A stretch of DNA of 61,166 nt from Dehalococcoidia bacterium (GCA_009619075.1 WJOY01000039.1:1-61166); one strand, 5' to 3'. Positions 15,201-56,678 are shown, counted from the first letter of the stretch. Program-made: numbers and translations. The notes: generated from the sequence alone by a model not told the origin.

Positions 15201-15455
15201 ATGCCAGAAGTAGTAATTGGCCAGGTGACCGATTTTTTTGCCAGGCCGGTGGTAGCTGGTGTGGAGCTAAGCGGTACATTAAAGATAGGTGACAAAATCC
15301 ACATCAAGGGCGCCACTACAGATATGGAACTTGCTGTAGAATCCATGCAAATCGATCGCGTTGACATCACCGAGGGCAAGCTTGGCGACCTTATCGGCAT
15401 AAAGGTTCCTGAAAGGGTAAGGCGGGGAGACATAGTTTATAAGGTCACGGAATAG
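15201..15455 (+). CDS. small EF-Tu domain-2-like beta-barrel protein
   Basis: 84 aa behind GGAAGGAGG RBS; [13 protein letters not shown]...GDLIGIKV...RGDIVYK resembles translation-factor domain II. Confidence 0.6.
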
Positions 15456-15936
15456 ATTGCTTCGTTTCACTCGCAATGACACGGAGCAGATTTGCCATTT
15501 CAATAGCGCTCACCGCGGCAAGAAAGCCCTTGTTACCCTCTTTAGCTCCAGCTCTCTGAACAGCTTGTTCCAGAGTATCAGCAGTAATAATGCCCTGTAT
15601 TATTGGCAATCCGGTGTCCAGGCTTATTCTACCGATTCCTCTGTGTACCTCGGAAGCTATATATCCGAAATGCGGTGTGCCACCGCGAATCACGGCACCG
15701 AGGCATATCACAGCGTTATATTTACCACTTTGCGCTAGCCTCTTAGCTATCAGTGGAATTTCAAAACAGCCTGGTGTCCAGGTAACGTCAATATCCTTCT
15801 CATCAACGCCATGGCGTAACAAAGCATCTCTCGCTCCTTCGAGCAACCTATTGGTTATCAACTCGTTAAATCGGGAAACAACTACAGCAAATTTAAGACC
15901 CTTCCCTACTAACATCCCTTCGTAGTGCTTAGCCAT
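15445..15936 (-). CDS. ribH: 6,7-dimethyl-8-ribityllumazine synthase
   Basis: 163 aa; [13 protein letters not shown] and GTPHFGYIA motifs; C-terminal tail [11 protein letters not shown] is repeat-encoded. Confidence 0.9.
15455..15480 (-). repeat. hairpin-repeat unit (ATTGC/GCAAT variant) forming the ribH 3' end
   Basis: Minus strand reads GTCATTGCGAGTGAAACGAAGCAATC. Confidence 0.8.
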
Positions 15937-17144
15937 TAGTTAACCTCCTCTACACCTAAAAGGTGTCCTAGCTTTTTTTGCTTGGTTTCCAGATAGTGAA
16001 TATTATAAGGGTTGGGTGGAGCTATTAGTGGCACAGTCTCCACTATCTTAAGTCCAAAGCTCTCCAGTCCAACTACCTTTTTAGGGTTGTTGGTAAGTAA
16101 TCGAATATTATGTAAACCTAAATCAGCCAAAATCTGAGCCCCAACTCCATAATCTCTCAAATCAGGTGGAAAGCCTAAAGCGACGTTAGCTTCTACAGTA
16201 TCCATTCCTTGATCTTGCAGAGCGTAGGCGCGGAGCTTATTATGGAGTCCGATTCCCCTTCCCTCTTGTCGCATATAAAGAAAAACTCCTCTGCCTTCTT
16301 CAGCTATGCTTCGCATCGCCAGCCTGACTTGATCACTGCAATCACATCTCAAACTGCCAAAGACGTCTCCGGTGAGGCATTCACTATGGACACGTACTAA
16401 AACTGGGCCACCACCTGATATGTCGCCTTTAACCAAGACAACATGTTCAGCGGCATCAACATTGCTTCTGTAAGCCAGGGCTATAAATTCGCCGAACCTG
16501 GTAGGCAGCTTAGCCTCAGCTACTTTTTGTACTAACTTTTCATGACGAAGGCGGTAAGTAATCAAATCGGCAATAGTCATAATCTTCAAATCATACTTAG
16601 AGGCCATGATCTCGAGCTCAGGCAAATGTGCCATAGTACCATCTTCATTCATAATCTCACATATGACGCCAGCGGGGTAAAGTCCGGCCAACCTAGCTAA
16701 ATCAACAATAGCTTCAGTATGACCTGCTCGCACTAGCACTCCTCCATCCCTGGCTCGAATGGGAAATACATGTCCCGGGCGGACTAAATCATCTGGCTTA
16801 CTATTAGGATCGAGCACTGTTTTTATGGTTTGGGCTCGATCGGAAGCAGAAATCCCAGTAGTTATTTTGTTCTTTGCTTCAATAGATACTGTGAACGCGG
16901 TGCAGTTTTTTGAAGTATTATCCTGAACCATTAGCGGTATTCCCAATTCATCAAGTCTCTGCTTGGTGATAGGAAAGCAAATTAAGCCTCGAGCCTCCTT
17001 GGCCATAAAATTTATAGCCTCGGGAGTAACTTTCTCTGCTGCTATCGCCAGGTCACCTTCATTTTCGCGGTTCTCATCATCAATGATGACGACAAAATTG
17101 CCTGCTCTTATATCTTCAAGCGCCTCTAGTATAGTAGCTAACAT
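15936..17144 (-). CDS. ribBA: bifunctional 3,4-dihydroxy-2-butanone-4-phosphate synthase / GTP cyclohydrolase II
   Basis: 402 aa; [29 protein letters not shown] motifs. Confidence 0.95.
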
Positions 17145-17166
17145 TATTTGAGTTCCTTCGCTTCAC

Positions 17167-17805
17167 TCAGGACAAGCCTTTTCTCGCGAATCCATATTCC
17201 TCCAGAAAGTCAAGGGTTAGATTCTGGCCGCTTTGTTCCTTCAGCCGTTCTACATATTTAGCTATGATATCCGCCTCTAAATTAACCTTATCTCCAGGTC
17301 TCTTATTACCCAAAGTGGTGTGTTCCGTGGTATAGGCTACTAGAGATATAGTAAAGGAAAAGTCATCAAGGCCAGCAATGGTAAGGCTAACGCCATCGAC
17401 AGCGATGAATCCCTTACTAGCTATATAAGGCATTAGTTTGGCCGGAGCTGAAATCCTCATAATACGCGCCGCTTCCTCGGGAGTTATCGAAATTACTTCC
17501 CCTATGTCATCAACATGACCCAATACTAAATGACCACCAAGCCGTCCACCTACTACAAGTGCTCTTTCCAAATTTACTTGGTCGCCATAATGAAGTTCGC
17601 CAAGATTAGTGCGACGCAATGTCTCTGGCATGACATCAACGTTGAAGGCATTACTGCTTAAAGAGGTGACTGTCAGACAGACGCCATTAACAGCTATGCT
17701 GTCGCTTATTCTCATCCCTTCAAGCACCCCTTTGACTCCAATGAGTAAACGGTGTGGATTCACTTCCCTGACTATGCCAATTTCCTCAACTATTCCGGTA
17801 AACAT
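17167..17805 (-). CDS. ribE: riboflavin synthase alpha chain
   Basis: 212 aa starting MFTGIVEEIG; internal duplication typical of RibE. Confidence 0.9.
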   Translation of the reverse strand: MFTGIVEEIGIVREVNPHRLLIGVKGVLEGMRISDSIAVNGVCLTVTSLSSNAFNVDVMPETLRRTNLGELHYGDQVNLERALVVGGRLGGHLVLGHVDDIGEVISITPEEAARIMRISAPAKLMPYIASKGFIAVDGVSLTIAGLDDFSFTISLVAYTTEHTTLGNKRPGDKVNLEADIIAKYVERLKEQSGQNLTLDFLEEYGFARKGLS

Positions 17806-17824
17806 ACTGCTGCTCTATAAAAAT

Positions 17825-18946
17825 TTACGATTTTTTCCGTGGTTCCCTTTTCACACACCCGCTGACTAGTATGTTATCGCCGAAGTTCTTAATATTAACC
17901 CGCTCAAGGCATAAAGCTTCAACCACACTACCAACTCCATCCCCACCTACTGCAGTCTTAGCCTCATTACCACCAATGATAATCGGCGAAATGAAAGCTA
18001 GCACTTTATCCACTAGCCTGTGGTCAAAGAGAGAGCCCAGGAGCTTGCCTCCTCCTTCTACTAAAACAGTGACTATGCCTCGTCTTCCCAGCACTTTGAA
18101 TAATTCTTCCAAATCTACTAGTCCTCCCACCCCTGGTAATTCCAGCACCACCACTCCAATTTGGGCCAGTCTTCTTTTCTTTTCCCTATCAAAAGGTTTA
18201 ACTGTGGCAAGTAAAGTCTTTCCTGGTTGCTTAAAAAGCTGAGCATCCAATGGTGTTCTTCCGTTGCTATCAACAATTAGACGCAGTGGTTGCTTTTTTG
18301 TCTCACCACCTTTGCCACAACAACCTCTAGCAGTAAGCCTGGGGTTATCAATGATGACAGTGTTCACCCCCACCATTATAACGTCGGCAATATGACGCAA
18401 AGTATGTATATGATTCCTTGCCGCCTCATTACTTATCCACTTAGAGTGACCGGTTTTAGTAGCGATCTTGCCATCAAGACTCATAGCAAACTTAGCGATA
18501 ACAAATGGCAAGCCTGTAGTAATAAACTTAATGTAAGCCTCATTTATTTCGTAAGCTTCCTCTTGGTACATGCCGACGTAAGTTTTAATGCCGGCTTCTT
18601 CTAGCTCTCTAACACCGCGCCCTGAAACCAGCGGATTAGGGTCCAGCAATGCTATTTGGACTTCAGAAATGCCAGCATTGATTATGGCTTGAGTGCAGGG
18701 TGGAGTGCGTCCATAATGACAGCAAGGCTCCAAAGTAACATACATAATGGCCCCTTTTGCCTTATCACCGGCTTGGCGAAGTGCTATCACTTCGGCATGG
18801 TCTGAGCCAGCGGGCTGTGTATATCCCCGACCCACAACGACCCCTTCTTTGACAACCACAGCTCCCACTGCCGGATTGGGGCTGGTATGTCCCAGAGCTA
18901 ATCTAGCTAAAGATAGAGCGCGCTCTATGTATTCTGCAGATAACAT
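17825..18946 (-). CDS. ribD: bifunctional diaminohydroxyphosphoribosylaminopyrimidine deaminase / 5-amino-6-(5-phosphoribosylamino)uracil reductase
   Basis: 373 aa; HAEVIAL and TLEPCCHYGRTPPC deaminase zinc motifs. Confidence 0.9.
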   Translation of the reverse strand: MLSAEYIERALSLARLALGHTSPNPAVGAVVVKEGVVVGRGYTQPAGSDHAEVIALRQAGDKAKGAIMYVTLEPCCHYGRTPPCTQAIINAGISEVQIALLDPNPLVSGRGVRELEEAGIKTYVGMYQEEAYEINEAYIKFITTGLPFVIAKFAMSLDGKIATKTGHSKWISNEAARNHIHTLRHIADVIMVGVNTVIIDNPRLTARGCCGKGGETKKQPLRLIVDSNGRTPLDAQLFKQPGKTLLATVKPFDREKKRRLAQIGVVVLELPGVGGLVDLEELFKVLGRRGIVTVLVEGGGKLLGSLFDHRLVDKVLAFISPIIIGGNEAKTAVGGDGVGSVVEALCLERVNIKNFGDNILVSGCVKREPRKKS

Positions 18947-18953
18947 TAGCTAT

Positions 18954-19529: not shown

Positions 19530-19606
19530 GTCTTTGGCATTGTAGCATTTAGCCTCGACAAAGTGCAAAAACGGGCTTTGTGGATTGTCCAGCGCCCTCG
19601 TTCTTG

Positions 19607-19690
19607 CCATTCTGAGCCCACTATGTCATTGCGAGCCCCTCGCTCCCTATCATTCTGAACGGAGTGAAGAACCCAGGCGAAGATTTTCTT
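19607..19690 (+). repeat. cluster of three hairpin-repeat heads
   Basis: CCATTCTGAGCCC / GTCATTGCGAGCCCCTCGCTCCCT / ATCATTCTGAACGGAGTGAAGAAC. Confidence 0.8.
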
Positions 19691-21371: not shown

Positions 21372-21488
21372 GTCATTGCGAGCCCTTCGCCTTCTGTCAT
21401 TCTGAGCCCTTCACTTCTTGTCATTCTGAGGGAGTAAAGCGACCGAAGAATCTCACAGTGTTCAGGACAGGCTCAGCGAAGCAATCTC
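21372..21488 (+). repeat. tandem hairpin-repeat cluster (four units)
   Basis: GTCATTGCGAGCCCTTCGCCTTCT, GTCATTCTGAGCCCTTCACTTCTT, GTCATTCTGAGGGAGTAAAGCGACCGAAGAATCTC, ...GGCTCAGCGAAGCAATCTC. Confidence 0.85.
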
Positions 21489-22036: not shown

Positions 22037-22141
22037 GTCATTCTGAGCCGAAGCCCTGAACGAAGTGAAGGGGAAGAATCTGACACACTCAAGATAAACT
22101 CCGCGACCGAAGAATCTCGGAGACTCTTCGCTCAGCGTGAC
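22037..22141. repeat. MITE-like composite repeat bounded by inverted GTCAnnCTGAG termini
   Basis: Left end GTCATTCTGAGCCGAAG..., right end ...CTTCGCTCAGCGTGAC (reverse complement GTCACGCTGAGCGAAG). Confidence 0.8.
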
Positions 22142-27350: not shown

Positions 27351-28277
27351 CTATTCTCCTTTAGTTAGATATTCCCCAGTGAAAACTTCTTCCACCGGGC
27401 CGGTGAGCAATACCTCCCCTACCCTATCCCACGATATAGTCAAGGTCCCACCTGGAAGTATTATGTCAACTATATCGCCTACATAATTATGTAGCTGGGC
27501 AGCTACAGCTATGGCACAAGCACCGCTACCACAAGCAAGGGTCTCTCCCACACCTCGCTCCCATACTCTAGCTTCTATCTTCCCCCTACTCAAAACCCTG
27601 GCTATCTCAAAGTTTGTCCTTTGTGGAAACAAGGGATGTCTTTCCACCTTAGGTCCCACCTCGGCTAGAGGAAAATTAACTACTGGCTCAGATACAAAGC
27701 TCACCGCATGGGGATTGCCCATGGATAAGAGGGATACTGATAGCTGATAGCTGTTAGTTGTCAGTTGATAGGTGATTACTGGAGACTGCTTCGCTTCGCT
27801 CGCAACGGCATCTGTGGTGAGGGTGACGGGAATTTGTTCTGGTTGGAATTGGGGCGTGCCCATGCTTACCTCGACTCGGCTCACTTTATTTCCTAACATG
27901 TACGCTTTAGCCTGTCTCATGCCCGATAACGTTTCTATCCTTAAATTTGTTGTACTAACTACGCCCTTTTCAATAGCATACTTGGCAAGACACCTTAATC
28001 CGTTGCCACAGGTCTCAGCCTCGGAACCATCGGGATTAAAGATGCGCATCTTTAAATCGCAATAGCTAGAATTCTGCACCAATATCAAACCATCGGCCCC
28101 TACGCCAAAGTGACGGTCACACATAGTTTGTGCCAGCTTAGCCCAATGAGATTCTTCGCGGAGTTTACTCTGAGCGAGATTCTTCGGTCGCTTCTCTCCC
28201 TCAGAAAGACAGGATGGGGCTCTGTCATCTATCAGAATAAAATCGTTTCCTGTAGCCTGGAATTTGGAGAATTTCAT
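27351..28277 (-). CDS. dapF: diaminopimelate epimerase carrying two in-frame repeat insertions
   Basis: 308 aa; MKFSKFQATGNDFILID, MCDRHFGVGADGLILV, ETCGNGLRC, LACGSGACA; insert peptides CLSEGEKRPKNLAQSKLREES and AVASEAKQSP. Confidence 0.9.
   Translation of the reverse strand: MKFSKFQATGNDFILIDDRAPSCLSEGEKRPKNLAQSKLREESHWAKLAQTMCDRHFGVGADGLILVQNSSYCDLKMRIFNPDGSEAETCGNGLRCLAKYAIEKGVVSTTNLRIETLSGMRQAKAYMLGNKVSRVEVSMGTPQFQPEQIPVTLTTDAVASEAKQSPVITYQLTTNSYQLSVSLLSMGNPHAVSFVSEPVVNFPLAEVGPKVERHPLFPQRTNFEIARVLSRGKIEARVWERGVGETLACGSGACAIAVAAQLHNYVGDIVDIILPGGTLTISWDRVGEVLLTGPVEEVFTGEYLTKGE
27781..27809 (-). repeat. degenerate hairpin-repeat unit inside dapF
   Basis: Minus strand GCCGTTGCGAGCGAAGCGAAGCAGTCTCC. 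Confidence 0.7.
28148..28213 (-). repeat. 66-nt composite repeat inside dapF
   Basis: Minus strand CCTGTCTTTCTGAGGGAGAGAAGCGACCGAAGAATCTCGCTCAGAGTAAACTCCGCGAAGAATCTC. Confidence 0.9.
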
Positions 28278-29251
28278 GCTATAAAGCCTCTTATTAGATT
28301 CTTCGGGGAGTTTACCCTGAGCGAGATAAGATTCTTCACTACGCTCAGAATGACAGGGAGCGAAGGGCTCAGAATGATAGACGACGGGCTGACATCAAAC
28401 CAATGGATTCTTTCATCGTCCAGATGAAACCAAGCATATTGATGACGAGCAAAGTGATGGGTTTCATACTTTATCTGTTCAATAGCTGCCGGCAAAGTCA
28501 ACTGGCCTTGAAGAAACTGGCCCACTTGCTTATAACCTATGCCCGACATAGAAGGCAAGGAAAAGCTATAACCCATTTTTACTAGCTCCTCTACCTCCGC
28601 AACTAATCCCTTTTGTATCATTTTATCAACACGCTGATCAATCCTATTATACAACTTGCTTCTTTCTACGGTTAAACCGATGATGCGGATAGGAAAACCT
28701 GGCGCCTCCTTGCGCCATAACTGAGAGGGAAGCTGCCCTGTCATGTGGTAAATCTCTAAAGCCCTGATGATACGGCGGATATTGCCAGGATGGATTTTGG
28801 TTGCGGCAAGAGGGTCGATTTGCTGAAGTTCTTTATAAAGCATATAGCTACCTTCTCGCTTCGCTCTGGCTTCCAAATCACATCTTAGTTTAGGGTTAGG
28901 TGGCACCTGGGGTATTTTCCATCCTTCTAATATTGACCACAGATAAAGGCCGCTACCACCTACCAATAACGGCAATTTGCCTTTTTGCTGGATAGCCTTG
29001 ATTGCCTCGGTAGCCAGTTGATGATACATAGCTAGGTTGAAATCTTCATCAGGGTTAACTACATCAATAAGGTGATGAGGGACTGATGCTCTTTCAGCTA
29101 AAGTGGGTTTATTGGTGCCGATATCCATATAGCGGTAAACCTGTCGGCTATCAGCGCTTACTATCTCTACCGGGAAATCTCGAGCTAAGTGTAGAGCAAG
29201 CTCGCTTTTGCCTACTGCTGTGGGACCAACGATGGCAACAAGGCATTTCAT
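28274..29251 (-). CDS. miaA: tRNA dimethylallyltransferase
   Basis: ORF 28274..29314 trimmed to MKCLVAIVGPTAVGKS (P-loop); C-terminal ~35 aa are repeat-encoded; stop overlaps dapF start (ATGA). Confidence 0.9.
   Translation of the reverse strand: MKCLVAIVGPTAVGKSELALHLARDFPVEIVSADSRQVYRYMDIGTNKPTLAERASVPHHLIDVVNPDEDFNLAMYHQLATEAIKAIQQKGKLPLLVGGSGLYLWSILEGWKIPQVPPNPKLRCDLEARAKREGSYMLYKELQQIDPLAATKIHPGNIRRIIRALEIYHMTGQLPSQLWRKEAPGFPIRIIGLTVERSKLYNRIDQRVDKMIQKGLVAEVEELVKMGYSFSLPSMSGIGYKQVGQFLQGQLTLPAAIEQIKYETHHFARHQYAWFHLDDERIHWFDVSPSSIILSPSLPVILSVVKNLISLRVNSPKNLIRGFIA
28296..28378 (-). repeat. composite repeat forming the miaA 3' end
   Basis: Plus strand AGATTCTTCGGGGAGTTTACCCTGAGCGAGATAAGATTCTTCACTACGCTCAGAATGACAGGGAGCGAAGGGCTCAGAATGAT. 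Confidence 0.9.
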
Positions 29252-29252: not shown

Positions 29253-29280
29253 GGGGATTCTTCGCTCCGCTCAGAATGAT
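29253..29280 (-). repeat. hairpin-repeat unit bridging tpiA stop and miaA start
   Basis: Minus strand ATCATTCTGAGCGGAGCGAAGAATCCCC; the tpiA TGA stop lies in the CATTCTGAG head. Confidence 0.85.
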
Positions 29281-32417: not shown

Positions 32418-32517
32418 GTCACCCTGAGCCGAAGCTCCGAGCGAAGTGAGGAGGCGGTGAAGGGTCTAAATTCTTCGCTACGCTCAGAATGACAGGAAGC
32501 GAAGGGCGCAGAATGAC
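32418..32517. repeat. MITE-like composite repeat (ACCCT/AGGGT variant) with inverted termini
   Basis: GTCACCCTGAGCCGAAGCTCCGAGCGAAGTGAGGAGGCGGTGAAGGGTC followed by inverted units ...CGCTCAGAATGAC and ...GCGCAGAATGAC. Confidence 0.85.
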
Positions 32518-40477: not shown

Positions 40478-41724
40478 AGAAAATAGCTATTTTAGGTTCA
40501 ACGGGTTCCATAGGGCGGCAAGCTCTAGATGTGATACGTGCCCTTTCTGCTAGATTCCAGGTGGTAGGTTTAGCTGGGGGTAAAAATCTCAAGCTTCTGG
40601 AAAAGCAAATAGCCAAATTTCAACCTGAGATGTTTTATTCCTCAGTCGAGCCTGACTTTACCTATAGAGGGGAATTCTTATCCATGGAACAAATAGCCAG
40701 CCATCCAGATGTTGATCTGGTCATCATAGCCACTTCAAGCAAAGCAGGGTTGTATCCTACTTTAGCAGCTCTAAAGGCAGGCAAAACAGTAGCTTTAGCC
40801 AACAAGGAAGTATTGATGATGGCGGGGGAAATTATCGTTCGTGAGGCTAAAAGCTACCAAGCTCAAATTCTGCCTATTGATAGTGAGCTTAGTGCTATCT
40901 GGCAATGCTTGCAAGGGGAGGAAAATAAACCACAAAGAATTTTTTTAACTGCTTCTGGTGGACCTTTCTACCACTATTCCCAGCCGGAATTAAGAAAAGT
41001 AACGGTAGAGCAAGCCCTTCATCACCCTACCTGGAAAATGGGGAGGAAGATCACTATTGACTCGGCCACGCTTCTGAATAAAGGAGCAGAGGCTATTGAA
41101 GCTCATTGGCTTTTCGCTATTCCTTTTGAGAGCATTGAGATATTAATTCATCCACAAAGTATCATTCACTCCATGGTAGAGTTTATGGACGGTTCAATAA
41201 AAGCGCAGCTCAGCTTTCCCGATATGAGGTTGCCCATCCAATATGCCCTTTGTTATCCTGAGAGGTTGCCCAATTCAGAGCTACCACGCCTCAACTGGAA
41301 CAAAATCCAGTCTCTAAACTTCGAGCCCGTAGAGCAAAACAGATTTCCTTGTCTTAAATTGGCGCTGGATGCAGGTAAGCAAGGAGGAACTTATCCTGCA
41401 GTGCTTTGTGCTGCCGATGAAGTGGCCGTAGGGTTTTTTCTTAACAAGCGTATAAGCTTTACTGATATAGCTAGAATAGTGCAAGAAACTTTGGAACAGC
41501 ATCGGGGCATTGCTCAGCCATCCTTGGAAGAAATTCTAATTGCCGATGCCTGGGCAAGGGAATATGTTGAGCGACTTTCCCTTTGTCATGGCAAGGCTTG
41601 TCCTGCCCCCGAGCCCTTCGCTTCCTGTCATTCTGAGGGGGCGAAGCGACCGAAGAATCTCGCTCAGGGTAAACTCCGCGAAGGGGAGGGAACTCGACGA
41701 AGCAATCTCAGGTCAGTGAGATAA
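40465..41724 (+). CDS. dxr: 1-deoxy-D-xylulose 5-phosphate reductoisomerase with repeat-encoded C-terminal extension
   Basis: 419 aa; ILGSTGSIG, LANKE, HPTWKMG motifs; the last ~45 aa (CHGKACPAPEPFASCHSEGAKRPKNLAQGKLREGEGTRRSNLRSVR) come from repeats. Confidence 0.9.
   Translation: MDRIKKIAILGSTGSIGRQALDVIRALSARFQVVGLAGGKNLKLLEKQIAKFQPEMFYSSVEPDFTYRGEFLSMEQIASHPDVDLVIIATSSKAGLYPTLAALKAGKTVALANKEVLMMAGEIIVREAKSYQAQILPIDSELSAIWQCLQGEENKPQRIFLTASGGPFYHYSQPELRKVTVEQALHHPTWKMGRKITIDSATLLNKGAEAIEAHWLFAIPFESIEILIHPQSIIHSMVEFMDGSIKAQLSFPDMRLPIQYALCYPERLPNSELPRLNWNKIQSLNFEPVEQNRFPCLKLALDAGKQGGTYPAVLCAADEVAVGFFLNKRISFTDIARIVQETLEQHRGIAQPSLEEILIADAWAREYVERLSLCHGKACPAPEPFASCHSEGAKRPKNLAQGKLREGEGTRRSNLRSVR
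41585..41709 (+). repeat. composite hairpin-repeat cluster at the dxr-rseP junction
   Basis: ...GAGCCCTTCGCTTCCT GTCATTCTGAGGGGGCGAAGCGACCGAAGAATCTC GCTCAGGGTAAACTCCGCGAAGG...CGACGAAGCAATCTC. Confidence 0.9.
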
Positions 41725-44068: not shown

Positions 44069-45103
44069 ATGGCAGAAGAAAAGGAAAAGCCGCTTACCCG
44101 TGATGATTTGCTGAAGCTAATAGAAGAAAACGGAGGAACAGCCGAAGGTCTTGACCTTTCAGAACAGACTTTTGTGGAAGCGATAGACCTTTCGGACTTA
44201 GACCTTCACGGGATTATCCTTAAGGATGCAAGATTTTCTACGCACTTTGAGGGTGACCAATTGTTGGGAGCTAAATTTGACGGGTCTAACCTTAATGGAG
44301 CCGACCTTCGTAGCATTAACCTTCAATATGCTCAGTTTAGAATGCTCAACAACCAACCCACATATTTACAAGCTGCTGACCTGAGAGGTTCACTCTTGTT
44401 AAATACTAATTTTCAAGGTGCAGACGTTACAGGCGTGAAATTTGGAGATCTAGCAAAAGCAGGAGGATATCTGGCAGCAATGTTGGATGATACTGACCTG
44501 CGGGGTGCAAAGCTATTTCGTGCAAACTTTAAGGGCTGCTATTTTTACAGCACTAAACTTGAGGGGGCCTTTATTCGTGGTGCTGATATTTTTGACGCTC
44601 ATTTGGAGGAAGCTGATTGGGGCAACTGTGTGATTGGGGAGGAGAAACGTGGCGACTTTTCCTCGGCAATGAACATCTATCGCTGTCTCAAGCAATGGTA
44701 TACCAATGCTGGTATGTATGATATTGCAGGTAAGTTTTTCTTTCGGGAGATGACAGCCCGAAGAAAGGCGCTAAAATGGCGGCCTAATCCCTTGCCGAGA
44801 ATCAGACAAACACTTTATGGACTTCTCTGCGGATATGGCGAAAAACCATGGCAGGTCTTCGCAAGCGCCACAGTGGTTCTATTCTGCTTAGCACTCGTCT
44901 ATTTCGCCATCGGAACTCTGACGCCTAACACTTTTTTGAACAGCCTTTACTACAGTGCCGTCTCTTTTACTGCTTTGGGCTATGGTAGTTGGGCACCACA
45001 GCCAACAGGCTGGGTAAAGGGGCTTGGAGCGGTTGAAGCCTTCCTGGGGGTTTTTATGATGGCATTATTCTTAGTGACTTTCATTAGGAAAATGACAAGA
45101 TGA
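44069..45103 (+). CDS. pentapeptide-repeat protein fused to a two-TM pore-loop channel-like domain
   Basis: 344 aa; A(D/N)LxG-type repeats over ~150 aa, then two TM helices flanking SFTALGYGSW (filter-like GYG). Confidence 0.7.
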   Translation: MAEEKEKPLTRDDLLKLIEENGGTAEGLDLSEQTFVEAIDLSDLDLHGIILKDARFSTHFEGDQLLGAKFDGSNLNGADLRSINLQYAQFRMLNNQPTYLQAADLRGSLLLNTNFQGADVTGVKFGDLAKAGGYLAAMLDDTDLRGAKLFRANFKGCYFYSTKLEGAFIRGADIFDAHLEEADWGNCVIGEEKRGDFSSAMNIYRCLKQWYTNAGMYDIAGKFFFREMTARRKALKWRPNPLPRIRQTLYGLLCGYGEKPWQVFASATVVLFCLALVYFAIGTLTPNTFLNSLYYSAVSFTALGYGSWAPQPTGWVKGLGAVEAFLGVFMMALFLVTFIRKMTR

Positions 45104-45120: not shown

Positions 45121-46896
45121 ATGCGTTTCTCTAAGCTTTTTGGCAAGACATTAAGGCAAGCACCTGCAGGAGCAGAGAGTATAAGCCACCGGTTACTGCT
45201 CAGGAGTGGCATGATTGCCCAGATAGCTGCTGGCATCTATTCCTATTTGCCCTTAGGCTGGCGAGTACTCAGAAAGATAGAGAGCATAATTAGAGAGGAG
45301 ATAGATAAAGCTGGCGGGCAAGAATTGATGCTGCCAGTATTGCAGCCCTTCGAACTATGGCAGCAATCAGGAAGAGATGTTTCCTTTGGCCAATCTCTGT
45401 TCACCCTGACCGACCGCAAGGAGCATAAATTAGTCTTAGGACCCACACATGAAGAAGTTATTACTGAGCTTGCTCATCGCTATGTGCAGAGCTACCGCGA
45501 TCTCCCTTTACTGCTTTACCAAATACAAACTAAATTCCGCGATGAGCCTCGCCCTCGTGGTGGATTACTGAGAGTCCGAGAATTCATTATGAAAGACCTT
45601 TACAGCTTTGATGTTGATGAGGCTGGTCTAGATGAAAGCTATGAGAAAATGAGCCAAACTTACAAGAATATCTATGCTCGCCTTGGTCTGCCAGCCTTAA
45701 TAGTGGAAGCTGACAGTGGTGCCATAGGTGGCAAGGAATCTCATGAGTTCATGGTCATCACTGAGACTGGCGAGGATGAGGTTATCTATTGCTCCAATTG
45801 TGGCTATGCCGCTAATGCAGAGAAAGCCCAAAGTGCCAAAGCGAGGATAGAGGATGTCATTGCGAGCCGAAGTCCTGAACAAAGTGAAGGAGCAGCAAAG
45901 CAATTTCTTCCTCTAGAAGAAATAGCCACGCCGCGTTGCAAAACCATAGAAGAGGTAGCTAGTTTTCTTGGCGTGTCAACGAATCAAACTTTCAAAGCCG
46001 TATTTTATTCCGCAGATGGCGAATTTGTCTTTGTCGTTATCCGAGGCGACTTAGAAGTGAATGAAACAAAGCTAAGAAATACGCTGAAGTGTTCCGAGCT
46101 TAGATTAGCTACTGAAGGCGAGGTAAGTGAGGCAGGCATAGTGGCCGGCTTTGCTTCGCCTATTGGTATAAAAGATGTCAAAATTGTTGCTGATGATTCC
46201 ATAACTTTAGGTGCTAATTTCATCGCTGGAGCTAATAAAGCTGGATATCACTTTAAGAATGCCAATTATCCTAGAGACTTTCAGGTTGACCTTATAGGTG
46301 ATATTGCACTGGCTCACCCCGGGGATAACTGTCCTAAGTGTGGTAGCATGTTGTCTTCTGCTCGTGGCATCGAAGTAGGACACATATTTAAGCTGGGCAC
46401 CTTTATCAGCGAAAAAATGGAGGCATTCTTCTTAGATCAAGAAGGTGTATCCAAGCCTATCGTTATGGGTAGCGATGGCATTGGATTAGGACGCCTATTA
46501 GCAGCCATAGTAGAGCAGAGCCATGATGATAAAGGTATTATTTGGCCTCTCTCTATTGCTCCCTACCAAGTTTATCTTTGCCCCCTTTATTTAGATAACA
46601 CCGAAGTTGCCCCCCTAGCTGAAAATGTATACCAAGAATTGGGAAAAACGGGAGTCGAAGTTCTTTTCGATGATCGTGATGAATCCCCCGGAATTAAATT
46701 CAACGATGCTGACCTTCTGGGGATACCTCTACGTCTAACCCTAAGCCCGCGCACTCTAAAAAGCCAAAGCATAGAGGTGAAATGGCGTGCCAAGAAAGAA
46801 ACTCAGCTTTGGCCATTAGAGAATGTGGCTGCTGAAGTTAATAGGCTACTAAGAAAAAAATTAGCTTCGCAAGGTTGCGCCCAGTTCTTGATGTAG
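45121..46896 (+). CDS. proS: proline--tRNA ligase with an in-frame repeat insertion
   Basis: 591 aa; bacterial-type ProRS with editing domain; insert peptide VIASRSPEQSEGAAKQF. Confidence 0.95.
   Translation: MRFSKLFGKTLRQAPAGAESISHRLLLRSGMIAQIAAGIYSYLPLGWRVLRKIESIIREEIDKAGGQELMLPVLQPFELWQQSGRDVSFGQSLFTLTDRKEHKLVLGPTHEEVITELAHRYVQSYRDLPLLLYQIQTKFRDEPRPRGGLLRVREFIMKDLYSFDVDEAGLDESYEKMSQTYKNIYARLGLPALIVEADSGAIGGKESHEFMVITETGEDEVIYCSNCGYAANAEKAQSAKARIEDVIASRSPEQSEGAAKQFLPLEEIATPRCKTIEEVASFLGVSTNQTFKAVFYSADGEFVFVVIRGDLEVNETKLRNTLKCSELRLATEGEVSEAGIVAGFASPIGIKDVKIVADDSITLGANFIAGANKAGYHFKNANYPRDFQVDLIGDIALAHPGDNCPKCGSMLSSARGIEVGHIFKLGTFISEKMEAFFLDQEGVSKPIVMGSDGIGLGRLLAAIVEQSHDDKGIIWPLSIAPYQVYLCPLYLDNTEVAPLAENVYQELGKTGVEVLFDDRDESPGIKFNDADLLGIPLRLTLSPRTLKSQSIEVKWRAKKETQLWPLENVAAEVNRLLRKKLASQGCAQFLM
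45856..45907 (+). repeat. long-form hairpin repeat (ATTGC/GCAAT variant) inside proS
   Basis: GTCATTGCGAGCCGAAGTCCTGAACAAAGTGAAGGAGCAGCAAAGCAATTTC. Confidence 0.9.
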
Positions 46897-49278
46897 TCTA
46901 TCGAGCATCTGCTTTTGGATTATGTCAACTTCTTCATCAGTTAAAGTATGCTCAGGTGATTGATAAACAATCCTTATAGCGAAGGATTTCTTGCCTTCAG
47001 GTATTTGCTCACCTCGATAAAAGTCAAAGAGCGTGACTTTCTTTACTAGCGGGAAACTTCGGATTACATCCTCCACCTGCTGATAGCTTACTTGCTTATC
47101 TATTACTAAGGCGATGTCTCTAGTTATGCTGGGAAACCGTGGGATAGGCTGATACTGCTTTACTTTAATTGTTTTGCTCAGCAACCTGTCTATATCCATT
47201 TCAATAAGATAAACAGCATCGGAAAGCTCGAAGGCTTGTGCTACCCTGGGATGCAAGTTACCTACAATACCCACCTTGTCACTATCAATGATTATATTAG
47301 CTGCCCTTCTAGGTGATAGGCTTTCATCATCACTGACCCCAAAGGTTGCTTCTAGTCCCAATTGGTTCAAAAGGTTCTCTACTACCCCCTTAGCATCAAA
47401 GAAATTGAGCTTCTCCTTATTACCATGCCAGGACAATTCTGCCTTTGGGCCGCTAAGTGCAGCACAAAGCATTTCCTTTTCTTGTGGCAGCTCATTCCCT
47501 TGTGGCAAGAATATCTTGCCGATTTCAAATAATCTTATGCTCTTTTCCTCAATCCTTTGATTGTGTGCCAAGGTGGTTAGCAAACCAGGACACAAAGTAG
47601 TACGCAAGTATTCTTGCTCCTTAGTCATAGGGTTAGCTATCCTTAGGGGTGGAATCTTTAGCTCAAACTTTGGAGAAAGCTTTTGTAATCTCTCTAAGCT
47701 AGTTAAAGAATAAGTCAGTATTTCTTGAAAACCGCAGCCGGTGAGAATATTTCGTAATCTTTGCTTGAGATTGCTTCGCTGCGCTCGCAATGACAACCTT
47801 GGTTCTTGTTTAGGTAAGGGAGAGCTAAGCCTGGTAACAGGAACCTTGTCATAGCCGATAATGCGAACCACCTCTTCTACCAGATCAGCAGTGCACCTAA
47901 TGTCACTACGCCAATAAGAAGTGACTACCAAGATTTGTGACGCTGAGTCGGCATGCTGACATTCAAAGCCCAAGGATTTTAATACCTTAAAAATCTTAGC
48001 TAGTGGTACCTTCAAGCCTGAAAGTCGCTCCACCTCCTCAGCAGAAAGTAGTATGCCTTTTGGCTCTAGCTTTCCTGGATAAACATCAACTATACCCCTG
48101 GCTGCTTTGCCACCAGCCAGCTCTAGCAGCAATTGAGTAGCCCGCTTCAGCGGCAGCAGTGGTAAGTCAGGATTTAGCCCTTTATCAAAGCGAATTGAAG
48201 CTTCACTCTGTAAATTAAGGCAGCGGCATCCTTGACGAATGATTGCTTGGTTGAAATTTGCCGACTCTAGGAGAATAGAAGTGGTTTTATCTGCAACCTC
48301 GGTATCTGACCCTCCCATAATTCCAGCAATAGCAACAGCCTTTTCTTTGTCAGCAATGACTAAAGTGTCGGGGCTAAGGACACGCTCTATTCCATCAAGG
48401 GTGGTTATAGTTTCGCCATTTTTAGCCCGACGGACAATAATCTGTTTACCTTCAAGCTTATGATAGTCAAAAGCATGGAGAGGCTGCCCATATTCCAGCA
48501 TCACGTAATTGGTAACATCAACCACGTTGTTAATAGGACGCATACCATAGCTACTCAGGCGCTGCTGTAGCCAGCCAGGAGAAGACGTTACCCTAACCCC
48601 CATGATTAAGCTAGCGCAGTACCTAGAACATAAACTTGGGTCAATTATGTCAACCTTGACAAAGGAATCTATCAGAGCCTCTGTTTCTTCATAGCCTAAC
48701 TCGGGCAAATGAAGTGGTTGCTCAGTAAGAGAGGCAATTTCTCTAGCAATGCCAATTATGGATAAGCAATCTGGGCGATTGGGCGTTATATCTAAATCAA
48801 AAATAACATCGCCTAAATAGTCTCTAAGAGGCATACCTAGAGGAGCTTCTGGTGGTAATACCATGATGCCCTCATGACTATCAGAGATCCCCAATTCCTT
48901 TTCAGAGCAAACCATGCCCTCAGAAAGAACGCCACGAATTTCAGCCGGCTTTAGCAAAATAGGTTTCCCAGTATGACCATCTATAAGTTGTGCTCCCACA
49001 GAGGCGAAAGGCACCTTCTGACCGTGGCTAATGTTTGGGGCACCGCAAACTACAGTAATCTGCTGGGGGCCGAGATTAACAGTAGCTAGCTTTAAGCGAT
49101 CAGCATTAGGATGAGGATTTAAAGCTATCACTTTTCCTACTACTATGTTGTTCCAGGTGCTGCCTGTAATCTGTAGGTCTTTGACTTCCACGCCAGCCAT
49201 AGTTAGCTTTCTAGCTAGCTCTTTAGGAGCAAGCTTGATGTCACTATAATCTTTAAGCCATTTAAGCGAAGCTTTCAT
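46861..49278 (-). CDS. pheT: phenylalanine--tRNA ligase beta subunit with an in-frame repeat insertion
   Basis: 805 aa; MKASLKWLKDY N-terminus, B3/4 and B5 regions; insert peptide LSLRAQRSNLKQ. Confidence 0.95.
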   Translation of the reverse strand: MKASLKWLKDYSDIKLAPKELARKLTMAGVEVKDLQITGSTWNNIVVGKVIALNPHPNADRLKLATVNLGPQQITVVCGAPNISHGQKVPFASVGAQLIDGHTGKPILLKPAEIRGVLSEGMVCSEKELGISDSHEGIMVLPPEAPLGMPLRDYLGDVIFDLDITPNRPDCLSIIGIAREIASLTEQPLHLPELGYEETEALIDSFVKVDIIDPSLCSRYCASLIMGVRVTSSPGWLQQRLSSYGMRPINNVVDVTNYVMLEYGQPLHAFDYHKLEGKQIIVRRAKNGETITTLDGIERVLSPDTLVIADKEKAVAIAGIMGGSDTEVADKTTSILLESANFNQAIIRQGCRCLNLQSEASIRFDKGLNPDLPLLPLKRATQLLLELAGGKAARGIVDVYPGKLEPKGILLSAEEVERLSGLKVPLAKIFKVLKSLGFECQHADSASQILVVTSYWRSDIRCTADLVEEVVRIIGYDKVPVTRLSSPLPKQEPRLSLRAQRSNLKQRLRNILTGCGFQEILTYSLTSLERLQKLSPKFELKIPPLRIANPMTKEQEYLRTTLCPGLLTTLAHNQRIEEKSIRLFEIGKIFLPQGNELPQEKEMLCAALSGPKAELSWHGNKEKLNFFDAKGVVENLLNQLGLEATFGVSDDESLSPRRAANIIIDSDKVGIVGNLHPRVAQAFELSDAVYLIEMDIDRLLSKTIKVKQYQPIPRFPSITRDIALVIDKQVSYQQVEDVIRSFPLVKKVTLFDFYRGEQIPEGKKSFAIRIVYQSPEHTLTDEEVDIIQKQMLDRLHQELGATLRS
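47767..47794 (-). repeat. hairpin-repeat unit inside pheT
   Basis: Minus strand GTCATTGCGAGCGCAGCGAAGCAATCTC. Confidence 0.9.
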
Positions 49279-53843: not shown

Positions 53844-53897
53844 CTTTTGACCGATTGTAGCAGACATATATAGGAAGTTCAAATCTTCACAATAGAC

Positions 53898-54037
53898 GGT
53901 CATTCCACAACACCTACCTGTCATTCCGCGTTTTTCGCTGCCTCCTTGCGGAGTTTACCCTGAGTGCGATTCTTCGGTCGCTTCTCTCCCTCAGAATGAC
54001 AGGAAAGCGAAGGGCCAGAGCTTCACCTCAGGATAAT
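53898..54037. repeat. hairpin-repeat cluster; core 53920-54000 is an 81-nt unit with GTCATTC...GAATGAC inverted termini
   Basis: GTCATTCCGCGTTTTTCGCTGCCTCCTTGCGGAGTTTACCCTGAGTGCGATTCTTCGGTCGCTTCTCTCCCTCAGAATGAC. Confidence 0.85.
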
Positions 54038-54117
54038 AAAATAAACGGTCTTCAAGATGGCGAGAATTATAGTACGTGATATAATAGAGTTACCCTTGCC
54101 ACATAATATGGGCTAAG

Positions 54118-54540
54118 ATGATTGAGAAGGCTTTTGAAATCACTGATCATACTGCTGACGTAGGCATTATTGCTTATGGAGCTAATATTAAGCAGCTCTT
54201 TTCCAATGCTGCTTTAGCCTTGTTTAGCTTGATCACGGAGGTCGGAAGTGTTAATGAGGAATTGCGGCGCCACGTAGAGATAGTGAGTGAAGACAAAGAT
54301 AGCTTACTAGTAGAATGGCTTAATGAGCTTATTTACCTCTTTGATGCTGAGCACGTTTTGTTTAGGAGATTCCATATCGAGAGTTTGACTAACAATCAGC
54401 TTAAAGCTACTTGCTATGGGGAAGATTTTGACCCTCTAAAGCACAAGATAAAGACAGGAATAAAAGCAGCTACATATCATATGTTAAAGATAAACAGGAA
54501 TAACCGCGGTTATGAAGTTCAAATAATCTTTGATGTTTAA
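54118..54540 (+). CDS. archease
   Basis: 140 aa; FEITDHTADVGIIAYG N-terminus. Confidence 0.85.
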   Translation: MIEKAFEITDHTADVGIIAYGANIKQLFSNAALALFSLITEVGSVNEELRRHVEIVSEDKDSLLVEWLNELIYLFDAEHVLFRRFHIESLTNNQLKATCYGEDFDPLKHKIKTGIKAATYHMLKINRNNRGYEVQIIFDV

Positions 54541-54551
54541 GGAGTTAAGAC

Positions 54552-56009
54552 ATGCCACAATGGCAAGGACAACTTGTTAAGATAGACGATTATCATTGGG
54601 AAATTCCTCAGAGCTACAAAGATGGCATGCGTGTTCCCGGGTTAATCTATGCTAGTAAAGAGCTGCTAGAGTCCATACGTGAGGAACAAACACCAGAGCA
54701 AGTCGCCAATGTTGCCTTTCTTCCCGGCATAATTAAATTCTCCTTTGCTATGCCAGACATCCACTGGGGTTACGGTTTCCCTATAGGTGGAGTTGCTGCC
54801 ATGAGTGTTAAGGACGGCGTAATTTCCCCTGGCGGAGTGGGTTATGACATAAACTGCGGGGTAAGGTTGTTACGTACCAATCTTAATGAAGCTGAAGTAA
54901 GGCCTAAGATCGACCAGCTCGTTAACCGACTATTCGCTAATGTGCCCTCTGGTTTGGGCTCTGAGGGAAAAATAAAGGTAAGCCGAAAAGAAATGAATGA
55001 ATTGATGGCTGGAGGGGCCCGCTGGGCAGTAAAGCGTGGCTTCGGTTCCGAGGAAGACTTAGATGCCACTGAAGAAGGCGGATGCCTGAAGGGAGCTGAT
55101 CCGAGTAAGATAAGCGATAAAGCCATAAAGCGGGGTATGCCTCAAGCGGGCACATTAGGCTCAGGAAATCATTTCCTCGAGGTTCAGGTAGTGAAGGAGA
55201 TCTTTGACCCTAACATAGCTAACGTCATGGGTATTAACCAAATAGGCCAAGTATTGGTTCTAATTCACACCGGCTCCCGAGGCTTTGGTCATCAGGTATG
55301 CACTGACTATCTGAGGGTGATGGAAGGGGCGGTATCGAAATATGGAATAAAACTTCCTGATCGCCAGCTTGCTTGTGTCCCGATAGAATCAAAGGAAGGT
55401 AGAGACTATTTAGCTGCCATGGCATGCGCTGCCAATTATGCCTGGTGTAACCGACAATGTATTACTCACTGGTTTAGGGAAAGTTTTTCTAAAGTCTTCG
55501 GTAAAAGTCCTGAGGAACTTGGCATGAAGCAGATTTACGATGTGGCGCACAACATCGCCAAGATAGAGGAACATATGGTAAATGGGCAGAAACTCAAGGT
55601 TTGTGTACATCGCAAAGGCGCCACCAGAGCTTTCCCACCTAACCATAAGGACATTCCTCAGAAATACAAGGAGATAGGGCAGCCTGTGCTTATCCCAGGA
55701 GATATGGGGCGTTGCTCTTTCATTGCTGTGGGCACCCAGAAGGCTATGGAGGAAAGCTTTGGCTCTACCTGTCATGGTGCTGGCAGAATGCTAAGTCGCC
55801 ATGCCGCTAGGCGAAGCTTGAGAGGTAAGGATGTAGCTCAAGATTTGAAGAGCAGGGGCATCACTATTAAGACAGGGAACATACCTTCCCTAGCTGAGGA
55901 AGCATCTCAGGCTTATAAGGATGTCACTGAAGTGATAGAGGTCTGCCACCAAGCCGGTATTTGTAACAAAGTAGCCGTGGCCGTTCCCCTAGGCGTTATT
56001 AAAGGCTAG
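54552..56009 (+). CDS. rtcB: RNA-splicing ligase RtcB
   Basis: 485 aa; PDIHWGYGFPIGG, GYDINCGVR, GSGNHFLE, CHGAGR motifs. Confidence 0.95.
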   Translation: MPQWQGQLVKIDDYHWEIPQSYKDGMRVPGLIYASKELLESIREEQTPEQVANVAFLPGIIKFSFAMPDIHWGYGFPIGGVAAMSVKDGVISPGGVGYDINCGVRLLRTNLNEAEVRPKIDQLVNRLFANVPSGLGSEGKIKVSRKEMNELMAGGARWAVKRGFGSEEDLDATEEGGCLKGADPSKISDKAIKRGMPQAGTLGSGNHFLEVQVVKEIFDPNIANVMGINQIGQVLVLIHTGSRGFGHQVCTDYLRVMEGAVSKYGIKLPDRQLACVPIESKEGRDYLAAMACAANYAWCNRQCITHWFRESFSKVFGKSPEELGMKQIYDVAHNIAKIEEHMVNGQKLKVCVHRKGATRAFPPNHKDIPQKYKEIGQPVLIPGDMGRCSFIAVGTQKAMEESFGSTCHGAGRMLSRHAARRSLRGKDVAQDLKSRGITIKTGNIPSLAEEASQAYKDVTEVIEVCHQAGICNKVAVAVPLGVIKG

Positions 56010-56015
56010 AGCAAC

Positions 56016-56678
56016 ATGTCATTGCGAGCGAAGCGAAGCAATCCCCAGCTTGTAATAAAGCTTCCACCCCCTCAGTTAAAAGGTAAGATGTCGCTGGAAG
56101 AAGCTATAGCTAGCCGTAGATCAGTTCGAAGATATCGCTCAGAATCATTAACACCTTCTCAGTTATCTCAGATTCTCTGGTCAGCTCAGGGTATTACCGG
56201 GGCCGGTAGACTTAGAGCAGCACCCAGCGCTGGAGCTACATATCCTCTGGAAATTTTTGCTTTTATTGGCAAACAAGGTGTCATTGCGAGCGAAGCGAAG
56301 CAACCTAAAGAGGAGCTACAAGCTGGCATTTACCACTACGATGTGGATAGTCATTCACTGGTTTTGCATCAGCCAGGGGACTTAAGGAAAGAGCTAGCTA
56401 GGGCAGCTCTGGATGAGGGATTCATTGCCAATGCCCCACTGGATATCGTTATCTGTGCCCTTTATCCCAGGACCTCCTATAGATATGGCCGGCGCGGGGA
56501 AAGATATGTTCACATGGAAGTAGGGCATGTCGGGGAAAACATCCACCTTCAAGCTGTAGCTCTGGGCTTGGCCACAGTGGAAGTCGGTGCATTTGATGAT
56601 GAGGAAGTAAGGAAAGTTCTAGGAGTGGAAGAACAGATTAAGCCTTTGTACATCATGCCCATTGGCAACCCGCTGTAG
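56016..56678 (+). CDS. SagB-type dehydrogenase / nitroreductase-fold protein with repeat-derived start and internal insertion
   Basis: 220 aa; LPPPQLKGKMSLEEAIASRRSVRRY and PSAGATYPLE motifs; MSLRAKRSNPQ and VIASEAKQP are repeat-encoded. Confidence 0.75.
   Translation: MSLRAKRSNPQLVIKLPPPQLKGKMSLEEAIASRRSVRRYRSESLTPSQLSQILWSAQGITGAGRLRAAPSAGATYPLEIFAFIGKQGVIASEAKQPKEELQAGIYHYDVDSHSLVLHQPGDLRKELARAALDEGFIANAPLDIVICALYPRTSYRYGRRGERYVHMEVGHVGENIHLQAVALGLATVEVGAFDDEEVRKVLGVEEQIKPLYIMPIGNPL
56018..56043 (+). repeat. hairpin-repeat unit supplying the 5' end of the SagB-like ORF
   Basis: (AT)GTCATTGCGAGCGAAGCGAAGCAATC. Confidence 0.9.
56280..56304 (+). repeat. hairpin-repeat unit inside the SagB-like ORF (different frame from the first copy)
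   Basis: GTCATTGCGAGCGAAGCGAAGCAAC. Confidence 0.9.

Follow-up and report, generated by a model that had tools for sequence, protein, structure and literature searches.

The window analysed here, a 61,166-nt stretch of DNA from a Dehalococcoidia bacterium (GCA_009619075.1, WJOY01000039.1:1-61166), consists of housekeeping DNA in which a family of short hairpin repeats lies dispersed between and within the genes. Pfam searches recognised riboflavin genes, dcd, tpiA, pgk, miaA, dapF, hflX, rpsB-tsf-frr, cdsA, dxr and rseP, as well as ispG, proS, pheST, rplT, infC, thrS, rtcB, PFOR and nadE. The nearest database relatives of the encoded DapF are labelled 'Dehalococcoidia bacterium', and a cyanobacterial origin was rejected because the window shows no enrichment of HIP1 (1 site).

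A dispersed family of hairpin repeats

Repeat finding and regular-expression inventories placed hairpin units at fifteen loci between 15.4 and 56.3 kb (Table 1), which share the form TGTC-A-N4-GA-GC-GNA-GC-GA-N4'-T-CTC and sum to ~1.0 kb, or 1.7% of the window. The head motif GTCATTCTGAG, allowing at most one mismatch, occurs 14 times against 0.99 expected, a count that none of 100 shuffled sequences reached, and the motif GTCATTGCGAG occurs 7 times against 0.78 expected. A covariance model trained solely on unrelated environmental contigs gave 9 matches in the window at E<1e-3, every one of them within 15.4-56.3 kb and none in 1-15 kb or 57-61 kb. An assembly artefact is ruled out by the presence of identical inserts in independent ENA, JGI, NCBI and Logan assemblies. 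We conclude that the dispersed hairpin repeat family is real and non-random.

A first-pass annotation of the window had reported hairpin repeats at 15 or more loci, and each position that it listed carries a copy, although the one placed at 27781 proved degenerate (27782-27809, GCCGTTGCGAG). The composite that it quoted as ~66 nt is actually 63 nt long. This composite does recur almost verbatim at three sites, 28148-28213(-), 41627-41689(+) and 53938-54000(-), with a mutual identity of 89-93%, and it is open in four of its six frames with exactly the four translations given, frames +2 and -3 carrying stops. Covariation of head and tail, nested growth, spread across phyla and phage contigs, and a bias toward the sense strand go beyond that annotation.

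The CT-type simple unit reads TGTC-ATTCT-GA-GC-GNA-GC-GA-AGAAT-CTC and the GC-type simple unit TGTC-ATTGC-GA-GC-GNA-GC-GAA-GCAAT-C, with one additional A; the latter is open in 5 of its 6 frames. The layout is TGTC, a stem of 5 bp (A-N4), G.A/A.G mismatches in tandem, two base pairs of G-C, a GNA triloop, the 3' half of the stem and a CTC tail. Within the window the stems co-vary between head and tail (ATTGC/GCAAT, ATTCT/AGAAT and ACCCT/AGGGT). When IMG/VR was scanned with a pattern that left two stem positions per side free, stems were fully complementary in 134 of 142 matches and comprised at least nine variants (ATTCT 63, ATCCT 37, ATTCC 13, ATCCC 9, ACCCT 4, ATTTC 4, and others). All four bases were found at the middle position of the loop among these 142 units, and the base 5' of GTC was T in 125 and C in 14. 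With a search pattern that limited two of the five outer pairs to pyrimidine/purine and left the other two variable pairs free, an alignment of 134 distinct units paired 99.1% of stem cells in the proposed structure and held 83 double-change cells versus 22 in shuffles (0/500 shuffles reached 83), and the pairing signal collapsed once the 3' partner was slid. The stem has nine positions, the first pair being A-T in 134/134 units and the second T-A in 128/134; positions 6-7 are the G.A/A.G mismatches, leaving only 7 standard pairs. Judged by this covariation, the hairpin is under constraint.

The core of the unit is the d(GCGNAGC) mini-hairpin sequence. The complementary strand would carry C.T mismatches where this strand has G.A, so that the hairpin is strand-asymmetric and, we infer, forms from the purine-rich strand only. 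The GCGNAGC DNA mini-hairpin combines two G-C pairs with a sheared G.A pair and has a melting temperature of 76.5 C, a stability that conventional thermodynamic models do not capture (PMC13037366). In ViennaRNA the expected hairpin is the minimum-energy fold of the simple units, at only -2 to -3 kcal/mol with z about 0. These energies are weak because standard models miss the stability of the mini-hairpin (PMC13037366), and we used them as evidence neither way.

As the first-pass annotation had stated, copies lie in intergenic gaps, at gene junctions and inside open reading frames (ORFs), in the last case including in-frame positions in essential DapF, ProRS and PheT. Alignment with solved structures delineates two repeat-encoded insertions in DapF (LSEGEKRPKNLAQSKLREES and AVASEAKQSP), one in ProRS (VIASRSPEQSEGAAKQF) and a repeat-encoded stretch in PheT (SLRAQRSNL), and VIASEAKQP is a 9-residue insertion in the nitroreductase relative to its solved homologues. 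The repeats thereby add 7-25 residues to essential enzymes. The last codons of the ribH, miaA and dxr ORFs also come from repeat copies, and the remaining copies are intergenic. An AlphaFold model of DapF built on a 30-sequence alignment had a mean predicted local distance difference test score (pLDDT) of 64 with low confidence at the inserts (residues 21-40 and 140-165); these regions may be loops, a compatibility too weak to count. A protein-database search with the composite peptide returned only 2 candidates and was uninformative.

The earlier statement that copies occur in both orientations holds for the two DNA strands but not relative to the gene touched, where nearly all are sense: copies deep within ORFs of the window and its relatives were sense in 12 cases and antisense in 0. 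Larger sets with crude gene calls showed no orientation bias. In the sense orientation the units encode hydrophilic Ser/Glu/Ala/Lys/Gln/Arg peptides, and in-ORF copies use frames +1, +2 and +3.

Nested arrays and turnover among relatives

Composite copies are assembled from head-only modules, a full unit and tail modules. The head-only module, GTCATTCTGAG plus CCCTTCGCTYCCT, is 24 nt long and is present one or more times per composite; the full unit is sometimes long-cored (GGAGNGAAGCGACC or CCGAAGCCCTGAACGAAGTGAAGG); and the tail module of ~33 nt (NNNNGCTCAGGGTAAACTCCGCGAAGAATCTC) includes an inverted head copy, its GCTCAG complementing CTGAGC of the head. At 21372-21488 the order is head(ATTGC), head(ATTCT), head(ATTCT) .. 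tail(AGAAT) .. tail(GCAAT), and the viral contig L263 reads ATTGC(ATTCT(ATCCT..AGGAT)AGAAT)GCAAT. Because GAGC...GCGA is kept at every nesting level, the inner material sits in place of the GNA triloop. The larger copies are Russian-doll arrays with a complementary head and tail at each level. Arrays with differing stems and both tails were nested in 4 cases (1 of them trivially, its first and last heads having the same stem, and 3 informatively) and anti-nested in 0; many arrays are without tails and so fall outside this tally.

Intermediate states are preserved at shared sites. L361, an ENA contig syntenic with 17.8-32.7 kb of the window at 92% identity, has a simple unit at the 3' end of miaA, to which a 24-nt head module is added in L364 and, in the window, a 33-nt tail module as well. 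At the position of window 32478, L361 carries one extra 33-nt tail module flanked by an 11-nt direct repeat, GCGAAGAATCT. At the 3' end of dxr, the copy in L369 and L371 is a simple GC-type unit in degenerate form, and the window is ~84 nt longer inside the loop of that unit. These states show that units in place grow and shrink locally, on the 5' side in steps of 24-nt head modules and on the 3' side in steps of 33-nt inverted-head-plus-tail modules. Since 11-nt direct repeats flank the modules, these can be gained, lost or exchanged through slippage, template switching or short-homology conversion.

Orthologous empty sites, which the first-pass annotation had suggested tabulating, were found at DapF and in the ProRS linker. 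We compared thirty DapF orthologues (67-97% identity), and in those at 89-97% identity the same codon has either no insert, an insert or a different one. At site 1 the window, P0001, P0002 and P0005 have the insert; the site is further expanded in P0004, occupied by a differing short array in P0007, P0010 and P0012 and by a different head array in L364, and empty in L361, P0008, P0015, P0016, P0017 and others. In the filled state 75 nt stand in place of 15 nt, and the empty site contains GAGCGCGA, which is similar to the unit core. At site 2 (AVASEAKQSP) the more distant orthologues lack an insert and others have an expanded one, and P0019 and P0027 carry an insert at a third site. No unit lies in the ProRS linker of L368, L371, L373, L374, L376 or any distant relative, and six different family members occupy it in the window, L366/L369/L427, L367, L365, L372 and L375; on this comparison of sequences it is an insertion hot spot.

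Other sites differ in kind. The PheT copy is consensus-perfect in the window, its relatives having a look-alike of the same length with 7 mismatches and L365 a 15-nt deletion. The composite at 22037-22141 takes the place of ~300 nt that make up the 5' part of a CxxCxxCC gene; L361 has this gene intact. As the flanks of the composite are ~97% identical, the deletion is recent. Many of the larger indels between the window and L361 coincide with repeats; others fall in poorly aligned ends or are unrelated intergenic or gene-content differences. Empty, simple and nested states thus occur at shared sites in relatives of 75-97% identity, and the family is dynamic.

A profile search of relatives, such as the first-pass annotation had proposed, yielded further copies: the 9 matches at E<1e-3 in 61 kb of the window compare with 19 matches at E<=0.01 in 938 kb of 84 related Dehalococcoidia loci, where they are concentrated in the closest relatives. 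By this measure the family is amplified in one lineage and patchy among its relatives.

Table 1. Repeat copies in the window, with strand and setting
Feature	Position	Strand	Setting
Simple GC-type unit GTCATTGCGAGTGAAACGAAGCAATC	15453..15480	-	3' end of lumazine synthase (ribH) ORF 15445-15936, supplying its last codons; covariance model 14 bits
Head array (GCCATTCTGAG; GTCATTGCGAG + spacer; ATCATTCTGAA...GAAGAACC)	19606..19690	+	Divergent gap between dcd and RMMBL metallo-hydrolase gene
Nested array: head(ATTGC), spacer, head(ATTCT), spacer, head(ATTCT), long core, tail(AGAAT), inverted-head module, tail(GCAAT)	21372..21488	+	Between two convergent genes; also in relative L361
Composite: long-core unit (+), tail module, inverted unit 22120-22141 (-)	22037..22141	both	At gene deletion
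Degenerate GC-type unit	27782..27827	-	In DapF as AVASEAKQSP
Composite	28148..28222	-	In DapF as ..CLSEGEKRPKNLAQSKLREES..
Nested composite	28295..28378	-	3' end of miaA ORF
Simple CT-type unit ATCATTCTGAGCGGAGCGAAGAATC	29254..29280	-	tpiA/miaA junction; covariance model 40.9 bits
Tail-to-tail pair: long-core unit, stem ACCCT/AGGGT (+, 32418-32468), versus CT-type unit and extra head (-, 32467-32517)	32418..32517	both	
Nested composite	41585..41709	+	3' end of dxr ORF
Long-core GC-type unit	45856..45907	+	In ProRS as VIASRSPEQSEGAAKQF, linker before editing domain
Simple GC-type unit, perfect consensus	47767..47794	-	In PheT as SLRAQRSNL
Composite, closed by inverted head 53920-53930 (+)	53920..54005	-	Upstream of tRNA-Val; as single-stranded DNA -15.4 kcal/mol, z = -2.9
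Simple GC-type unit	56018..56045	+	6-nt gap between rtcB and nitroreductase gene; tag and preceding base create ATG of longest ORF; translation of the unit uncertain
Simple GC-type unit	56280..56307	+	In nitroreductase as VIASEAKQP

The comparison with relatives also brought out features apart from the hairpin units. Tandem repeats of the heptamers CTGATAG/CTGGTAG/CTGAAAG lie at the pgk-tpiA and tpiA-miaA junctions of L361 (2607-2650 and 3449-3500, corresponding to window ~30074 and ~29269); the window has fewer of them or, at the tpiA/miaA junction, the hairpin unit at 29254-29280 instead, and they look like a second, unrelated small-repeat system. L361 has 1358 nt extra at 9013-10370 (window ~23635), a gene-content difference at 92% identity comprising a small gene and an FAA-hydrolase-family gene. 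In the window a gene for a pentapeptide-repeat and ion-channel (Ion_trans_2) protein (44069-45103) stands between ispG/gcpE and proS; gcpE directly abuts proS in L365-L371, so this gene is an insertion in the window's lineage. L370 and L371 place sequence matching window 53513 (the start of thrS) within ~300 nt of sequence matching window 14535 onward, a junction that would imply a ~39 kb rearrangement or inversion in the window's lineage. Finally, the 100% identical short-read Logan contig L003 begins and ends within repeat copies (window 28344 and 32443), and the family therefore fragments assemblies.

Spread across phyla and possible routes of movement

Among the matches listed, those to the exact 26-mer pattern GTCATTSYGAGCGNAGCGAAGMAATC exceed 120 loci in species-representative genomes and 120 contigs in IMG/VR. 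Its hosts include many Bradyrhizobium, Sphingomonadales and Xanthobacteraceae, Legionellales and Coxiellaceae, Desulfobacterota, Chloroflexi, Planctomycetota and Omnitrophota, and further Hymenobacter, Bacteroidales, Fibrobacter and Bacillota; genomes with identical 26-mers range from 45% to >60% G+C, and the 26-mer is rare in most other Dehalococcoidia. All 289 of the 289 listed matches are of the GC type. An inverted partner lies within ~110 nt of 83 of the 143 units at cellular loci; in the window 2 of the 15 loci have such a partner. Alpha-proteobacterial copies usually have the tag CGTC and most have the tail C-CAG, and the CTC tail is found in the window units and in 68 of 142 CT-type IMG/VR units.

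Viral contigs with repeats encode portal, major head, adaptor and tail proteins, and some of these contigs may be prophages or gene-transfer-agent clusters. Clustering of ORFs near the repeats in viral contigs gave phage structural proteins only, and curated phage and plasmid collections gave one match without annotation in a Novosphingobium megaplasmid and one weak phage match. Phages probably carry units between hosts.

The first-pass annotation had held that the window contains no transposase or other obvious mobilising gene. Pfam searches found no transposase among the window genes, but there are two tyrosine-recombinase genes, a full-length XerC/D-like one (11068-12006) and a truncated one (59957-60565). 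The HUH genes (TnpA, RAYT) that it had suggested seeking were absent from the window and from the ORFs flanking 120 cellular copies; a Pfam scan of the 142 ORFs concerned found no mobilisation family enriched and no Y1_Tnp.

Several features of the window's ends are recorded here alongside these recombinase genes. The XerC/D-like gene follows, on the opposite strand, a tRNA-Pro/Gly/Met cluster (10528-12006 in all). From 56000 to 61166 the G+C content falls to 0.36-0.41; this segment has two paralogous LCM-type methyltransferase genes (57136-57876 and 58746-59840) and the truncated tyrosine integrase, whose catalytic domain is missing its first half, and it may be the remnant of an integrated element. 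A direct repeat of ~130-150 nt with 83-86% identity (5667-5793 and 7045-7171) duplicates the 3' coding end of a Na/Ca-exchanger-family gene (4813-5829) just after an RCK/TrkA-domain gene (5942-7030), as if the latter had been inserted with target duplication. Two neighbouring tRNA-Ser genes at 4526-4701 (anticodons GGA and CGA) are identical over a 3' segment of 27 nt.

The explanation we favour, with confidence a little above even, is that the units are lineage-amplified, non-autonomous repeats resembling repetitive extragenic palindromic (REP) sequences of the CGTC/TGTC-tagged type, moved in trans as a single-stranded DNA hairpin and reshaped by local slippage and template switching. New loci would be seeded by a unit moving as a single-stranded hairpin through an enzyme encoded elsewhere, for which an HUH/Y1-type or other structure-specific enzyme would be the first candidate, and phages would carry units between hosts. 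Both the 11-nt direct repeats and the inverted copy of the head would help local growth and homogenisation, which would proceed by slippage, template switching or short-homology conversion. The units would be non-autonomous selfish DNA, with selection acting as a filter such that in coding regions a copy persists only if it lies in a permissive linker, keeps the frame and has the sense orientation.

A number of observations weigh against this explanation. No mobilising enzyme was identified in the window or in the ORFs beside the 120 cellular copies, and in alpha-proteobacteria, where such repeats abound, Y1 transposase genes are few (PMC6006769). Filled and empty sites show no clean target-site duplication and no conserved target, DapF site 1 being a replacement of 15 nt by 75 nt, and PheT, without an indel relative to distant relatives, is better fitted by conversion or an old insert than by fresh transposition. 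The nesting statistic rests on few informative arrays (3), the computed energies of the simple hairpins are no better than those of shuffles, and the sense bias within ORFs is equally compatible with a role at the RNA level.

Alternatively, there may be no transposase, the units spreading and becoming homogenised through host replication and repair, by template switching at quasi-palindromes, slipped-strand mispairing and short-homology conversion among copies or with incoming phage or transformed DNA, a possibility that we regard as real but clearly the less probable. The 11-nt direct repeats that flank modules suit it, as does the inverted head copy of the tail module (CGCTCAG versus CTGAGCG), a signature of template switching. 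So do the consensus-perfect PheT copy opposite look-alikes of equal length, the single ProRS site holding different family members, the core-like GAGCGCGA of the empty DapF site together with the DapF junctions, and the fact that a transposase was found neither here nor, as far as is known, for CGTC REPs (PMC3733652). Host repair does not easily explain seeding in naive sequence, identical 26-mers across phyla from 45% to >60% G+C, or a bloom in one lineage whose sister lineages are nearly free of the units.

A bolder version, which we hold to be doubtful, would see in the units a phylum-spanning, phage-borne class of mini-hairpins that multiply without a dedicated transposase, the d(GCGNAGC)-cored hairpin on one strand itself recruiting host replication or repair machinery or an unrecognised class of enzyme. 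If it were true, hairpin loops and permissive sites would receive units copied by that machinery, so that Russian-doll arrays are built up and essential proteins are remodelled.

Somewhat less credible still is that the units are selected cis elements, either RNA hairpins that stabilise or punctuate mRNAs at their 3' ends or protein sites on DNA (gyrase/IHF-type, or a single-strand initiation signal for primase), whose spread is secondary. Many copies do lie in the sense orientation at 3' gene ends and junctions, where only the mRNA-like strand forms the G.A/GNA hairpin; REPs elsewhere have such roles (PMC3733652), and mini-hairpins have been found at priming sites (PMC13037366). Some 3'-end copies may have a cis-regulatory role, but such a role cannot account for those that are deep inside coding regions, polymorphic or, like the copy at 22037-22141, destructive of a gene. 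The patchy distribution, the empty sites in close relatives with the same gene order, the absence of a terminator-like T run and the lack of an Rfam family match also speak against it. Very improbable, finally, is that the encoded peptides are the selected object, recruited by proteins as hydrophilic linker modules: in-ORF copies are all sense, in frame and in loops or linkers, yet intergenic gaps hold the same DNA just as often, all three frames are used, orthologues work without inserts, and what is conserved is the DNA, with covarying stems.

How CGTC-type REPs, two families of Rickettsia palindromic elements (RPEs) included, arise and move has been a question since their description, no enzyme being known. 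The present family makes it testable, since it offers a strand-asymmetric mini-hairpin core, co-varying stems, a three-state series and copies on phage contigs, and its hosts include the culturable and genetically tractable Bradyrhizobium, Sphingomonas and Novosphingobium. In practical terms, the repeats break short-read assemblies, inflate calls of 'hypothetical protein' and can mark deletions, and they should be masked when Dehalococcoidia and other metagenome-assembled genomes are annotated.

Comparison with known repeat systems

Literature searches by DNA strings and encoded peptides returned only primers and chance matches, and one by the sample accessions returned nothing; Rfam gave nothing but tRNAs at the gathering threshold, and chance matches at E<=1. 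In what the literature returned by sequence or peptide, in Rfam and in the annotated phage and plasmid records, we found no description of this particular family. The view of the first-pass annotation that no formal description is known stands to that extent; the kind of repeat, on the other hand, has been formally described (PMC3733652).

Integron attC sites, considered only for the truncated integrase at 59957-60565, were rejected because the ends of the unit are TGTCATT... and ...AATCTC, without R''/R' core sites (RYYYAAC / GTTRRRY). Miniature inverted-repeat transposable elements were rejected as well: DapF has no target-site duplication and shows replacement rather than simple insertion, and no parent insertion sequence was found. 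The small dispersed repeats (SDR) of Nostoc (Elhai et al. 2008) are reportedly hairpin repeats of ~21-27 nt that insert into one another and into conserved genes, with no known enzyme; their sequences are said to be different and confined to Nostocaceae. GTAG-tagged REPs and REPINs, which are served by RAYT (Y1 HUH) proteins, are like the window family in being short tagged hairpins that form doublets, bloom in particular lineages and are thought to be handled as single-stranded DNA. Membership among them was rejected, as the window family has a TGTC/CGTC tag and a sequence shared across phyla rather than species-specific, and there is no RAYT in the window or beside the 120 cellular copies.

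With RPEs the family shares the tag and the start of the stem (the RPE sequence GTCATTCC... encodes VIPAKAGI and VIPWLDHGI), stop-free in-frame insertion into essential genes and the occurrence of several inserts per gene. It differs in its host, a free-living Chloroflexota lineage, and in nesting, which is not described for RPEs. RPE-1 (Ogata et al. 2000) is reportedly a longer, classic element of 100-150 nt and is probably unrelated in sequence. Membership in RPE-4 or RPE-6 was rejected because stem and loop sequences differ: their peptides VIPWLDHGI and VIPAKAGI imply the stems ATTCCGTGG and ATTCCCGC, not ATTCT/ATTGC with GAGCGNAGCGA. The first-pass annotation likened the family to RPEs more than to REPs, which is apt for its RPE-like behaviour, but the contrast is false, since RPE-4 and RPE-6 sit within the CGTC REPs (PMC3733652).

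The GTAG- and CGTC-tagged REP superfamilies were defined by Di Nocera, De Gregorio & Rocco 2013 (PMC3733652), the latter with families CGTC-1 to CGTC-4 and with Neisseria dRS3, RPE-4 (= CGTC-4) and RPE-6 (= CGTC-1) among its members. CGTC REPs have a CGTC tag (variants TGTC and CCTC), stems of 8-9 bp that start with A-T pairs, loops of 4-5 nt and a 3-nt tail that is mostly CCA; they occur mostly as inverted dimers and rarely in clusters, include intragenic copies and have no associated transposase, and bulged or unusual members escaped the authors' own search (PMC3733652). Like them, the window family has an unpaired 5' tag (TGTC, and CGTC in its alpha-proteobacterial copies), spans many phyla, lies within genes including those for tRNA synthetases, and has no linked transposase. 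The likeness is partial in the stem, of whose nine positions, opening A-T then T-A, 7 are standard pairs, in the short tail, which is CCA(G) in alpha-proteobacteria, and in the inverted pairs, which account for 83/143 units in alpha-proteobacteria and for 2 of the 15 loci in the window. Unlike them, it has an imperfect stem of 5 Watson-Crick pairs, tandem G.A mismatches and 2 G-C pairs, a 3-nt GNA loop rather than one of 4-5 nt, a 1-nt bulge in the GC-type unit and a CTC tail in the window, and clusters and nested arrays, rare in the CGTC families, are the rule in the window. Its peptides are absent from the supplementary list of intragenic REPs (PMC3733652). The family may overlap a variant among those that the authors list. 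On its sequence features, the window family is best filed with the CGTC/TGTC-tagged REPs, as a new variant of that kind and not as a categorically new system.

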